Shown: positions 48,500-63,499, numbered from the stretch's first letter. The stretch is DNA of 64,000 nt from an uncultured delta proteobacterium (GCA_963835905.1 CAWIHG010000008.1:258384-322383), one strand, 5' to 3'. The notes: a model not told the origin generated them from the sequence alone. Made by a program: numbers and translations.

Positions 48500-48513
48500 C
48501 GCGGCGGCTCTGC

Positions 48514-49076
48514 TTTTTTCATTCCAGCGCGTGTGGAGACCGGGGTCGCTCGACTTCGCTCGAAGACTCGCTCCGCTCGGGATGACACAAGGGCGCGCCG
48601 CGCCCGCGGCGAGTCCGTCATCTAGAATCGCCGGTTCCTTTATCTTGACCGATACCTCCGTCATCCTGAGCGAAGCGAAGGATCTCGCGCGGTCCTCCGC
48701 GCGTCGCTGCGAGACTTGACGCGGCCGCAAAAGGAGTCGGCCGCGAGATCCTTCGCCGTCGCAGCCGACAGAAGGCCCTCTCGCTGCGCTCAGGGCGCCC
48801 AGGCGGCGGCTCAGGATGACCGAGAAAGAGAGCGGCGAAGGGGATTGGAGCGGCGTGAACCGGCGGCGCGGCGCCGCCTCAGAATGAGAGACGGGGGCGC
48901 GCCCCTGTTTTGTCATTCCAGCGCGTGTGGAGACCGGGGTCCCTCGACTTCGCTCGAAGGTCCTTCGCTCCGCGCAGAACGTCCACTCGGTCGCGCGGCG
49001 CGGCGCTAGCGTCGTAATTCGGTCATCCTGAGACGAGTCTGCGAGGCGAAGGATCTCGCGCGGTCCTCTGCGCGCC
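48514..49076. repeat. Cluster of REP-like palindromic elements (A units near 48514 and 48906; B units near 48660 and 49022; inverted partial copies between)
   Basis: A unit is TTTTGTCATTCCAGCGCGTGTGGAGACCGGGGTCSCTCGACTTCGCTCGAAG; B unit is GTCATCCTGAGCGAAGCGAAGGATCTCGCGCGGTCCTCCGCGCG. Both occur in two direct copies plus reverse-orientation fragments. Confidence 0.8.
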
Positions 49077-49180
49077 ACGGCGATCGAATCACGAATAGTC
49101 GCTCACCCGCCATTTCGCGCTTACGAACTCTTGCGCTAAAGTCGGCTCCAGCCGCCAATCGCGGGCCAAGGGGGACCGGG

Positions 49181-59720: not shown

Positions 59721-59854
59721 CCTGTTCCTCCGGCCTGAGCCTAACTAGCACTCAAAAAACGGCGGCTGCAAGAGCAGACGGCTGCGCGACGGCATCCGGG
59801 ACGCCGCGGCGGCGCGCGCTCCGTTCGCAACGTCAGGACCGGCGCCGCGCTCTT

Positions 59855-59996
59855 TTCCGTCATCCCGAGCGAAGCCGAGGGATCCCGGATCCGGGATTTC
59901 TCGACTCCGCCCGCAACGGGCTCCGCTCGAAATGACGGAGGGCCGCCCACTGCGGGCTCCGCTCGAAATGACGGAAGGCCGCCCGCAATGGGCGGA
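59855..59996. repeat. REP-like element cluster (one forward B-like core, CCGGATCCGG palindrome, two inverted 22-bp copies)
   Basis: gtcatcccgagcgaagccgagggatc, then gggctccgctcgaaatgacgga twice, which is the reverse complement of the core. Confidence 0.7.
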
Positions 59997-60072
59997 GCCT
60001 GCGCCGCGCCGGCTGGTCCGACGGTGCGCGCGCGGATAAATTAGGACCTGCGCCGGCCCGCGCGCTCCCCGG

Positions 60073-60759: not shown

Positions 60760-61319
60760 GCACCGCCGATCTGTTCGTCGCCCTGCTCCACTATCCGGTC
60801 GTCGATCGCACCGGACGGATCGTGACCTCGGCGATCACCAGCCTCGACCTCCATGATATCGCACGCTCGGCGCGGACTTACGGCGTGCGCGGGTTCTTCG
60901 TCGTGCATCCGATTCCGGAGCAGCGCGGGTTCGCCGCATCCGTGATCGATCACTGGCGGTTCGATTTCGGGCGCGCGCACGACTCGCGCCGGCGCGAGGC
61001 GCTGGCGCTGGTCGAGATCGTCGCGGACCTCGACGCCGCGACCGCGGCGGCCGAGCGGATCGCGGGTGCGCGCCCGACCCTGGTCCACACCTCGGCGCGC
61101 AATCAATCGGGGCTGACCTTTGCCGAGTTGCGCGGCCGGATGGAAGTGGCGGGCGCCGCGCCGGTCATGCTCCTGCTCGGGACCGGATTCGGGTTCGCGC
61201 CGGCCATCCGGGAGCGGGCCGACCTGGCGCTGGAACCGATTGCCGGCGCGACCGATTACAACCATCTGTCGGTGCGCGCCGCCGTTGCGATCATGCTCGA
61301 CAGGCTGCGCGGGCGCTGA
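60756..61319 (+). CDS. SPOUT-superfamily RNA methyltransferase-like protein
   Basis: GTG start overlapping the trmD stop; C-terminal LLLGTGFG and [16 protein letters not shown] resemble SPOUT motifs 2 and 3. Confidence 0.45.
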
Positions 61320-61386
61320 GCGCCGCCCACGGCGCCGCTTCCCGTTGCGATGCACAAGGGGCATCATATCGGCGGAGCGCGACGCG

Positions 61387-61905
61387 ATGACGTGGAGACA
61401 TAATCCGCCGACACGGGGTTTGCTGTGCGCCGCGATCGCAGCGGCCACGATGCTCGCGGGATGCGCGACCACGGCGGTGCCCGTCGGCGGCTCCCGCGCC
61501 GGGGCCCTGCTGCCCGACCGCGCCCGCGCACTCATCCAGCATTGCCCCGAGCTTGCGTGTACCGCCGCCGAGGTGCCGGGATGCGGCTTCGGCGAGGACG
61601 TGGAAGCCGGCGGTATCACGATGCGCGCCGAGATCGAATGCGCCCGCGATGGCGCCGGGACCGCATGCGTGGAGCGGCGCAAGCCGGTGGGCGGCGAGAA
61701 TCTGACTCTGCAGAATCAGCGGCTGAACTTCCGATGCGCCGGCGATCCGCTGACCTGCGTGGTTACGGGCGGCAGCGCGATGTGGCCGGAGCCGGCGGCG
61801 ATAGCGGGCGGGGCGGCAAGCGGCCCCGAACTCTCTTGCCATGCACCGCGGCGGGCAGGACCCGCGCCGGCGCCGCACAGCATCCCCGGCCCCGACACCG
61901 CGTAA
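61387..61905 (+). CDS. Cys-rich hypothetical lipoprotein
   Basis: Lipobox (MLAGCAT); the last ~70 nt belong to the duplicated block that flanks the GIY-YIG cassette. Confidence 0.45.
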   Translation: MTWRHNPPTRGLLCAAIAAATMLAGCATTAVPVGGSRAGALLPDRARALIQHCPELACTAAEVPGCGFGEDVEAGGITMRAEIECARDGAGTACVERRKPVGGENLTLQNQRLNFRCAGDPLTCVVTGGSAMWPEPAAIAGGAASGPELSCHAPRRAGPAPAPHSIPGPDTA

Positions 61906-62061
61906 AGCGCGCGCGACGAGCGACGGCGCCAGGGTCTGGGGCGGATTGATCGCATGTGCGACACGCATCAGCGGCGTTCCTCGCGATCCCTAATGATACC
62001 CCGATTTTCCTCAACACCCGCCCGTAATGCTGAATACTTGGCCGTAATGCTGAACATCCGG

Positions 62062-62108
62062 CCATCATCCTGAACGAAGTGAAGGATCTCGCGCGGTCCT
62101 CCGCGCGC
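62062..62108 (+). repeat. REP-like element B, forward copy (left inverted repeat of the GIY-YIG cassette)
   Basis: tcatcctgaacgaagtgaaggatctcgcgcggtcctccgcgcgc; ends 9 nt before the GIY-YIG ATG. Confidence 0.8.
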
Positions 62109-62116
62109 TTCTGAAA

Positions 62117-62437
62117 ATGCGCCGCACCTATTGCGTGTACATCATGAGCAGCAAGTCCGGTGTGCTCTGCATCGGCTCGACCAGCGATCTCGAGCGACGC
62201 GTGATCGAACACAAGCAGGGATTATTCCCAGGCTTCACGAGAAAATACCGGGTGAACCCACTCGTGTACTTCGAAGAGTTCGAGCGGGCAACTCAGATGG
62301 TAGAGCGCGAGCGACGGCTGAAGGGCTGGACCAGGCAAAAGAAGCTCGAATTGATTCACAGCCAGAACCCCGAGATGGTTGATTACGCGCGGAGGACCGC
62401 GCGAGATCCTTCGCTCCGCGGACTTCGCTCAGGATGA
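62117..62437 (+). CDS. GIY-YIG nuclease family protein (small YhbQ/COG2827-like)
   Basis: YCVYIMSSKSGVLCIGSTSDLERRVIEHKQG..YFEEFE...RERRLKGWTRQKKLELI..NP matches the GIY-YIG/URI domain; the C-terminal 15 codons run into the inverted REP-like element. Confidence 0.85.
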   Translation: MRRTYCVYIMSSKSGVLCIGSTSDLERRVIEHKQGLFPGFTRKYRVNPLVYFEEFERATQMVERERRLKGWTRQKKLELIHSQNPEMVDYARRTARDPSLRGLRSG

Positions 62438-62438
62438 C
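62386..62438 (-). repeat. REP-like element B, inverted copy (right inverted repeat of the GIY-YIG cassette)
   Basis: Reverse complement is gtcatcctgagcgaagtccgcggagcgaaggatctcgcgcggtcctccgcgc; it contains the GIY-YIG stop codon. Confidence 0.8.
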
Positions 62439-62778
62439 GACTGGAGCTGGTGCGCCGTGGTTGAGCGCACGGGACATAAGCGGGGCTCGAGCGTCAGGCG
62501 CCGAGCTCTCTTGCCAGGCACGCGGCGGGCCGGACCCGCCCCGGCGCCGCACAGCATCCCCGGCCCCGACACCGCGCAAGGCGCGCGCGACGAGCGACGG
62601 CGCCAGGGTCTGGGGCGGATTGATCGCATGTGCGACACGCATCAGCGGCGTTCCTCGCGATCCCTGATGACACCCCGATTTTCCTCAACAATCGGCCGTC
62701 GCGCTGAACACGGCGCAGTCATGCTGCAGACCCGCCCGTCGTCGAGAACACCCGCCCGTCACGCTGAACGCTCTGTCC

Positions 62779-62823
62779 GTCATCCTGAGCGCAGCGAAGG
62801 ATCTCGCGCAGTCTTCCGCGCGC
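62779..62823 (+). repeat. REP-like element B, forward solo copy
   Basis: gtcatcctgagcgcagcgaaggatctcgcgcagtcttccgcgcgc. Confidence 0.8.
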
Positions 62824-62910
62824 CTGTTCGTCGGTTCACCGCTACGTGAAGCGTCCGGAGAAATACGACGACGCTCATTTGGGAGAGTATCGCCGGGCGG
62901 CACGCTAATT

Positions 62911-63150
62911 TTATCTGTCAATCTTAACCGCCCGCCGCCAGAGCCAACCCAGAAGCTCGTGCCAGTACCATCCGAATAGCCGCACCACAAACCAGCCGAA
63001 GCAGATCGCGGTGGCGATCGCGAAAATCACGGAAAGCCATCGCGTGCCGTATGCCGCTCCCGCCAGAATTCCGAAGACCCACGCCATGACGAGCGCAATA
63101 TAGGCGGACGGGCGAAGCCTGGGCCTGCCGTCTGGTTGCTGTGATGGCAT
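62911..63150 (-). CDS. Hypothetical small membrane protein (79 aa, 2 TM)
   Basis: ORF with two hydrophobic helices and a Trp-rich tail; no known domain. Confidence 0.4.
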   Translation of the reverse strand: MPSQQPDGRPRLRPSAYIALVMAWVFGILAGAAYGTRWLSVIFAIATAICFGWFVVRLFGWYWHELLGWLWRRAVKIDR

Positions 63151-63211
63151 AGCGCTGCGCCGATCAGGTTCGCCGGGAGTGGGTAAATTTTGGGGCGCGG
63201 ATTTTCATGTT

Positions 63212-63252
63212 GTCATTCTGAAGCTATACCGCTGCCCTTTCGAGGGCAGGCT
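63212..63252. repeat. REP-like element variant with tetraloop hairpin
   Basis: gtcattctgaagctataccg + CTGCCCT-TTCG-AGGGCAG. Confidence 0.5.
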
Positions 63253-63499
63253 CCACGCACGGGTAAGCGCGAGAGGCCCGGCGGCACTTGCACCAGGAGT
63301 CGGCCCAGCGATCCAAATCGGCGGGAAGCCGGGATTCTACCGGTCAAGCCAGCGCCAGCGCTGGCTTGGACCTTCACAATGTCAGCCTCCAGGATCGCCC
63401 CATCAAGATGAGCGATTGCCACGCCGCGCCCGCGCTATTGTTTCCGGCGCCACTATTCGATACGTTTCCTAGCTCGACCCCCGGCGGTCACAAACTCCC

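Follow-up and report, generated by a model that had tools for sequence, protein, structure and literature searches.

Ssn proteins (family cd10448) are small, single-domain GIY-YIG enzymes of ~94-110 aa that act as site-specific nucleases on single-stranded DNA (ssDNA), and together with their hairpin repeats they were described as recently as 2025 (Chenal et al. 2025, Nat Commun, PMC11893778). According to that paper, Ssn proteins bind a hairpin repeat tagged with CGTCAT (NTS/SRM), cut a few nucleotides upstream of it and act on transforming ssDNA, and their genes are typically flanked 5' and 3' by the repeat (20-50 nt) in an SRM-ssn-SRM layout that resembles an insertion sequence (IS), for which mobility is raised as a hypothesis only (PMC11893778). 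In a stretch of 64,000 nt from an uncultured delta proteobacterium (GCA_963835905.1 CAWIHG010000008.1:258384-322383; hereafter the window, to which all repeat and open reading frame (ORF) searches refer), we found an Ssn-type GIY-YIG gene, here called ssn, embedded in a lineage-specific cluster of hairpin repeats and bracketed by a direct duplication, both copies of which carry the 3' end of the lipoprotein gene upstream. We put at about one half the probability that the two blocks are an old, locus-specific segmental duplication inside this Ssn-type repeat-cluster insertion, amplified locally in the manner of repetitive extragenic palindromic (REP) sequences and bacterial interspersed mosaic elements (BIME) and homogenised by gene conversion.

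The two blocks, A1 (61822-62108, 287 nt) and A2 (62497-62823, 327 nt), are direct repeats at a distance of 675 bp with the GIY-YIG gene between them. They align by BLAST at 88% over 254 nt (E 1e-89), and a repeat search returns a 229-nt direct repeat at 89% (61847-62075 and 62521-62749), with extra repeat families widening both ends; a 60-nt probe from the block centre has exactly two matches, against none expected from shuffles. In the pairwise alignment, the leftmost ~195 nt are near-identical and are followed by a 41-nt indel, which consists of two additional 20-nt tandem units in A2 and accounts for the difference in length, while the longest identical stretch (85 nt, 61907-61991) lies in mid-block. 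Each block is a composite of 88 nt of host gene end, a core of ~107 nt, an array of 20-nt half-sites and one hairpin, B, and the junction that follows TAA(A/G)GCG is identical in both copies. Divergence is distributed unevenly over these segments, with 9/88 positions differing in the gene end, 6/46 in B, 2/107 in the core and heavily reshuffled tandem arrays, and it is significantly lower in the core than in the rest (binomial P 3e-4, Fisher P 0.005). The duplication that the preliminary description had reported around the GIY-YIG cassette is therefore real, with slightly wider limits, and as stated there it includes the 3' end of the lipoprotein gene and ends in B at the right of every copy. 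The coding part amounts to the last 27 codons and the stop, however, and not to ~23 codons, and the "few substitutions" attributed to the copies are a fair account of the core but not of the gene end (10%), B (13%) or the tandem units, where differences are far more numerous.

To place the blocks against an unoccupied locus, we compared contigs of relatives that carry lipoprotein homologues, namely L011, which is the closest, and L002, L003, L004, L005 and L006. Nucleotide identity of L011 to the window is 96.4% in trmD, 92.9% in the lipoprotein gene and 98.8% in rplS (overall ~94-96%), and the neighbourhood shared with the relatives reads rimM, trmD, Methyltrn_RNA_4, lipoprotein, (small membrane protein), rplS, bactofilin. 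L011 is collinear with the window to 61909 and then again from ~62885-62905, and its lipoprotein and small membrane-protein genes are separated by 59 bp. At this locus, L011 and L002-L006 have one gene end and no core, repeats or GIY-YIG gene, and the second copy of the gene end in the window matches L011 over its first 87 nt only. Between the lipoprotein stop and the small membrane-protein gene, ~975 bp have thus been added in the window lineage, and only 88 nt of each 287-327-nt block are present at the empty site; the other 200-240 nt, with the core, the tandem units and B, belong to the added DNA. Because these parts are absent from the empty site, only 88 nt per block is target DNA, and the large target-site duplication (270-320 bp) once proposed for this locus is not borne out in the comparison with L011 and L002-L006. 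From 61910 to 62884, the GIY-YIG gene is the sole credible ORF, and no integrase or recombinase is encoded. A wider survey of metagenome and genome contigs for the locus, based on the lipoprotein profile, gave pattern matches only, none of which was confirmed.

The lipoprotein gene (61387..61905, plus strand) is an ORF for 172 aa with the lipobox LAGC and is without a match in Pfam or NCBIfam. The 23 residues at its C-terminus, SCHAPRRAGPAPAPHSIPGPDTA, are conserved, and since this motif is kept in all ten homologues (63-90% identity), the gene end within copy 1 is genuine coding sequence. Copy 1 of the gene end (61822..61909, plus strand), which takes in the final 27 codons, the stop and 4 further nt and is collinear with L011 up to 61909, is the functional end of the gene. 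Copy 2 (62497..62583, plus strand), 92% identical to L011 2473-2560, has a 1-nt deletion at 62520/62521, CAA in place of TAA (62577-62579) and a His-to-Gln change; judging from the frameshift and the lost stop, it is a dead relic. Relative to L011 and outgroups, copy 1 has four private changes and copy 2 has five, none of them clearly common to both, and the duplication therefore dates from near the split from L011. Divergence from L011 at four-fold sites is 6.8%, so the event is old. In some relatives (L006 6500-6549; proteins P0004 and P0005), the lipoprotein stop is replaced by AAG, which adds 14 extra residues (KAGGI[AT]VHATLA), so that within the clade the end of this gene varies even where the cassette is absent.

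The ssn gene (62117..62437, plus strand) encodes a single-domain protein of 106 aa, in which Pfam PF01541 spans residues 5-76 (E 2.6e-13) and is the sole family above the Pfam curated cut-off, a weak T5orf172 match falling below it. Its relatives in the PDB are the single-domain UPF0213 proteins 1zg2 and 1ywl, and it has 157 homologues, the closest of which (P0024, on a 2.3-Mb contig) is 83% identical; the annotation of homologues as Candidatus Binataceae is a hint at the source organism but no proof of it, and no relatives were found in viral contigs. With the NTS-flanked homologue of N. gonorrhoeae it shares 40% identity (pairwise BLASTP E 2e-20; tblastn to the locus E 2e-11), the homology criterion given in the Ssn paper being E < 1e-10 (PMC11893778). 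By these similarities, the window protein is a homologue of Neisseria SsnA. The catalytic positions of SsnA are Y6, Y17 and E64; here Y8 and E65 are kept and the second tyrosine is Cys18 (codon TGC, 62168-62170). This change, Y18C, and two others, T47N and R48P, fall at positions that are invariant or nearly so among 15 aligned homologues, all 15 of which have Tyr at position 18. The corresponding Y17A mutant of SsnA is reported to bind without cleaving (PMC11893778). The window nuclease is probably inactive or binding-only and the ssn cassette is probably decaying, which fits an old event. The final 13-16 residues of the protein (ARRTARDPSLR..SG; ..ARRTARDPSLRGLRSG) are encoded by the inverted hairpin B' (62386-62437), and all close homologues keep this tail, so that in this clade the repeat forms an integral part of the gene.

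Element B reads GTCATCCTGA.CGAAG.GAAGGATCTCGCGCGGTCCTCCGCGCG, and its 3' part folds as a 7-bp GC hairpin in ssDNA. B1 (62057..62108, plus strand), a CGTCAT-tagged hairpin with the stem CGCGCGG/CCGCGCG, ends 8 nt ahead of the ssn start codon; B' (62386..62445, minus strand) is an inverted copy that overlaps the 3' end of ssn; and B2 (62772..62823, plus strand) is decayed, with two substitutions that weaken the stem. The arms of B1 and B' are 33 nt long and 94% complementary, and as DNA hairpins the two fold with z-scores of -2.2 and -3.2. The half-site array of copy 1 (62013..62072, plus strand) holds three 20-nt tandem units (..CCGTAATGCTGAAC..), the last of which merges into B, and that of copy 2 (62687..62787, plus strand) holds five units of 20/21 nt, the form of the unit in both arrays being ..CCGTCATGCTGAAC. 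Compared with the family consensus, represented by the copy at 48661, B1 and B2 have three private changes each and share none, which fits descent from a single consensus-like ancestor. Moreover, the 20-nt arrays are confined to A1 and A2 and occur neither at the other B loci nor in the 51-nt spacer that follows B'. Together with the pattern of changes in B1 and B2, this confinement indicates that the whole block was duplicated as one unit, and it led us to reject a scenario in which ssn had been inserted between core and array, the arrays and B on the two sides being clusters of independent origin. Tandem arrays of 20-23-nt half-site units, each of which repeats the 5' tag of the hairpin, directly upstream of a full repeat, are found both in the window, from a Binataceae-like genome, and on a plasmid of the cyanobacterium Planktothrix (L015, 1172-1252 and 1813-1893), and the part of the Ssn paper available to us makes no mention of them (PMC11893778). 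By analogy, their position on the side where SsnA cuts suggests repeated cut-and-repair.

Copies of B are found in the window at 48661, 48742(-), 49048, 62081, 62399(-) and 62796, in both orientations and at several intergenic loci. The region 48500-49080, between a CoA-transferase-like and a Mg-chelatase-like gene, is a repeat mosaic with B at 48661, 48742 (inverted, partial) and 49048, and it also holds two copies, at ~48516 and ~48909, of a second element (TTTCATTCCAGCGCGTGTGGAGACCGGGGTC..CTCGACTTCGCTCGAAG). Upstream of trmD (59778-60004, with repeats at 59855-59978) lies a second family of palindromic repeats that carry the CGTCAT tag (CCGTCATCCCGAGCGAAGCCGAGGGATCCCGGATCC...); it is present in the window, L002 (3874-4624) and L006 (4211-4687) and absent from L011 (580-654). 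By this comparison, it is another fast-changing repeat cluster, and intergenic repeat families come and go among these relatives.

The core (copy 1, 61910..62012; copy 2, 62584..62686; ~103-107 nt) is unique sequence. It has no match in L002-L006 or L011 and no Rfam match at the gathering threshold or at E<=1, so that a structured RNA was rejected as an explanation; it folds worse than shuffles on both strands, and its six-frame translation has no protein relatives in the database. A widespread repeat was rejected as well, since 20-mer and 22-mer scans of contigs from genomes and metagenomes returned either no match or four chance ones that lack extended homology, and the window holds no additional copies. 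Gene conversion between the direct repeats is the best explanation for the near-identity of the two cores, with functional constraint as the alternative. Two minus-strand ORFs, 61291..61968 and 62235..62642, both start with MRVAHAINPPQTLAPSLVARALRGVGAGDAVRRR and diverge past residue 34. We rejected them as real genes, as they have no Pfam match, no homologue for any of the six frames of the core, no exact record in the protein collection and no excess of GC at third codon positions (GC3), in agreement with the preliminary description, which had called these twins spurious.

Two short stretches of the insertion belong to neither block nor to the gene. One is a spacer of 51 nt (62446..62496) between B' and copy 2 of the gene end, which resembles none of the other sequences compared, the tandem units included; the other is a stretch of 61 nt (62824..62884) ahead of the point where homology with the relatives resumes. 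Neither is similar to ssn or to the tandem units, and the possibility that they are remnants of these was rejected. An extension of the second gene-end copy leftwards to B' was not established (marginal in-register identity to the lipoprotein gene of 21/51, P ~0.03; peptide score no better than shuffles, 47/300), and a third partial gene-end copy was rejected at 62837, where a 7-nt match (CACCGCT) exists and local alignments with the intergenic DNA of relatives are not significant.

Four other ssn loci, a small sample, were compared with the window: L012 (N. gonorrhoeae), L013 (Azospirillum), L014 (Rhizobium) and L015 (Planktothrix). The Planktothrix gene is bracketed by direct copies of a composite of three 23-nt half-site units and a full hairpin pair (81-140 nt, spacing 641). 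On plasmid AZO_p3 of Azospirillum lipoferum 4B (L013, 1390-1900), the homologue lies between sufB and sufC in an operon for Fe-S assembly, with hairpin pairs on both sides, and the end of sufB is not duplicated. In Rhizobium, a repeat-bearing unit of 271 nt occurs 2.2 times in tandem beside ssn, and the N. gonorrhoeae gene lies between copies of a 124-nt repeat (spacing 832), with a 73-nt exact repeat (spacing 252) upstream. A duplicated host flank is absent at all four of these loci, where only repeat composites are duplicated. Judging from them, direct repeats of repeat composites around ssn are ordinary, and the window is special in that its repeat reaches into unique DNA and a host gene.

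Repeat clusters of the REP/BIME kind are prone to local duplication by recombination or slippage, and Shyamala, Schneider and Ames are said to have described REP-mediated duplications in enterobacteria (EMBO J, 1990). If the blocks arose by such local amplification, ~975 bp with core, half-site array, B, ssn with B' and the orphan spacers would have been inserted, and the unit of gene end, core, array and B would then have been copied beyond ssn by local recombination or replication slippage; we infer both this order of events and the recombination mechanism. The outcome would be 1.5 periods of a 675-715-bp unit, reached through unequal recombination or template switching with subsequent trimming. 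Within the same mechanism, block and ssn could have been duplicated in tandem with the second ssn lost or never completed, or repair could have proceeded out of register, and in neither case would a transposase-style staggered cut be involved. Later, copy 1 would have been kept by selection as the gene end while copy 2 decayed, B1 and B2 would each have drifted from the consensus, ssn would have lost its catalytic tyrosine, and the central ~150 bp would have been held near-identical, most simply by gene conversion between the direct repeats. Recombination that copies flanking DNA, which was among the origins first proposed for the locus, remains the best class of explanation. Several points nevertheless weigh against local amplification. 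An intermediate with one block, whether with or without ssn, was found in no relative, so that the order of events was not seen directly. After a tandem duplication, two copies of ssn would be expected, and no junction that could be recognised marks the loss of the second; nor is there clear microhomology at the junction between the spacer and copy 2. In addition, the near-identity of the core could mean that it is the functional or mobile part, and the search for further core copies in the source genome covered just 64 kb.

Other routes to the same arrangement deserve to be weighed. The ssn unit is directly adjoined by a direct repeat at either end, both copies stop at their right precisely where B stops, and occupied and empty sites exist among close relatives, as would be expected if ssn, B' and the spacer had been inserted next to a resident unit of core, array and B and widely staggered nicks, made for example by the ssDNA nuclease at the hairpin, had been filled in to duplicate ~290 bp; in line with this, SsnA cuts ssDNA a few nucleotides from the hairpin and the SRM-ssn-SRM layout is IS-like (PMC11893778). 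We consider this coupling of insertion and long target duplication unlikely, since with 88 of 287-327 nt at the empty site a prior, separate insertion is still needed, the left edge at 61822 has neither hairpin nor half-site, the Azospirillum, Planktothrix, Rhizobium and Neisseria ssn loci have no duplicated host flank, and copies that differ by 10-13% no longer have readable junctions. Furthermore, GIY-YIG hydrolases are not known to join DNA. A classical target-site duplication is unsupported because most of the duplicated sequence is not target. More far-reaching is the proposal that A1-ssn-A2 preserves the footprint of Ssn cassette movement, in which insertion next to a resident hairpin cluster copied a long part of the upstream flank and the core, 98% identical where its surroundings drifted by 10-25%, would be a cis-acting part such as a promoter, an end or a small RNA. 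We regard it as improbable; if true, the locus would form, with the empty site of L011, the first occupied/empty pair documenting SRM-ssn-SRM mobility. Single-crossover integration is another candidate, its textbook product being an insert with duplicated homology on each side. A small DNA molecule with block and ssn from a sibling or related cell could have entered a one-block chromosome after uptake, through a Campbell-type single crossover or through one-ended homologous plus illegitimate joining, and the 85-nt identical run lies in mid-block, which is where one would expect diverged partners to cross over; when the two copies and L011 are compared three ways, the pattern is star-like and no change is clearly common to both copies, and Ssn proteins act on transforming ssDNA (PMC11893778). 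But this requires a donor with ssn already at the locus and a recipient that has the block without ssn, neither of which was observed, homology on both sides would usually lead to a double crossover without duplication, and the inserted DNA encodes no recombinase. Integration is thus, in our view, unlikely.

Two further possibilities bear on the copies themselves. The cores are much more alike (2/107) than the adjoining host segments (9/88) and share the same junction after TAA(A/G)GCG, which could point to two independent, site-specific insertions of a mobile unit of core, array and B behind two copies of the gene end, with the cores alike through one master copy. This seems to us very improbable, as no other core was found in the window, at the relatives' loci, in genome and metagenome collections (20-22-mer) or by six-frame protein search, the adjacent arrays and B have diverged strongly, which fits poorly with a recent common master, and a separate duplication of the 88 nt would still be required. 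The source appears to be a metagenome-assembled contig (518,688 bp) and an independent short-read assembly (Logan contig L001) breaks inside B2, which raises the question of whether two strain variants of the locus were joined in tandem by assembly or binning, an error that the preliminary description had named as refuting the duplication. Divergence of the copies and independent confirmation of the right-hand junction make an assembly artefact unlikely: A1 and A2 differ at >20 positions and in repeat number, and L001 begins inside B2 with copy-2-specific variants and is 100% identical onward through the downstream genes. Copy 2 is also set apart by a frameshift and substitutions of its own and by two additional repeat units, and the junction of spacer and copy 2 joins unrelated sequence to mid-gene, with no shared k-mers. 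We give a joining of strain variants hardly any credence, and of the explanations considered, the local amplification of a composite block accounts best for the locus.

Downstream of the insertion, the small membrane-protein gene (62911..63150, minus strand) encodes 79 aa, against 81 aa in relatives, where it lies 27-65 bp from the lipoprotein stop. It is only 84% identical, and an import of the region from a divergent donor was considered and rejected, as this gene is fast-evolving in all pairs. Between it and rplS, a segment of ~150 bp (63211-63386; interior 63225-63372) has the opposite orientation in L011 and L006 to that in the window, L001 and L002-L004 (L011 2934-3073; L006 6898-7034; L002 6852-6968). 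Its flanks are collinear, and it is bounded by the imperfect inverted repeats TTGTCATTCTGAAG and CTTCACAATGTCAG. The orientation does not track relatedness, and the segment is a candidate invertible switch.

The main value of the locus lies in a clean comparison of occupied and empty sites between relatives ~5% apart, in which a cassette and its repeat cluster were gained in a conserved neighbourhood of ribosomal-protein and tRNA-modification genes. Such repeat clusters can pull host coding sequence into local duplications. For annotation, the duplication accounts for one relic fragment of a gene and a pair of spurious antisense ORFs. The locus is a single example, old and partly decayed, and the mechanism is not settled by it.

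Compared with known systems, the locus resembles SRM-ssn-SRM cassettes in that the protein is a single-domain GIY-YIG enzyme of ~100 aa homologous to SsnA and the gene stands in an IS-like layout between the inverted CGTCAT-tagged hairpins B1 and B', copies of which are scattered intergenically. It differs from them in its second catalytic tyrosine, which is Cys, in the 20-nt half-site array ahead of the upstream hairpin (a feature that Planktothrix also has) and in a direct repeat that reaches 195 nt past the repeats, into unique DNA and a host gene. B itself has the CGTCAT tag and a ..GGATC tail but a different stem from the published repeat, and the published SRM pattern, HGTCWYN(0-2)YYVSBRHN(0-5)WNVSBRGN(0-2)RNCYNB, has no match on either strand of the window. 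The likeness to REP/BIME clusters, known from the REP/RAYT and REPIN literature (PMC2817692, PMC3116915), consists in short, GC-rich, intergenic hairpins of alternating orientation, in composite units that amplify locally and serve as recombination substrates, and in an associated nuclease or transposase gene flanked by inverted repeats. Unlike in those clusters, the enzyme here is a GIY-YIG hydrolase and not a Y1 transposase, and unlike in their duplications, the join points are not both within repeats, the left edge lying in coding sequence. As with the attL and attR sites of integrative elements, a host gene 3' end occurs twice, intact upstream and as a relic downstream, but the insert is <1 kb, has no integrase or recombinase, and its duplicated segment includes 200+ nt of non-host DNA. 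With GIY-YIG homing endonuclease genes (e.g., of the I-TevI type) the locus shares the catalytic domain and presence/absence polymorphism among close relatives. Homing, however, yields co-conversion of flanks and not their duplication. The homing event envisaged in the preliminary description is not supported, because the protein is single-domain, without a DNA-binding domain, the location is an intergenic repeat cluster with no intron or intein context, and the four other ssn loci have no duplicated host flank. We conclude that both parts of the locus are of kinds already known, an Ssn/SRM cassette and the amplification of a repeat cluster.

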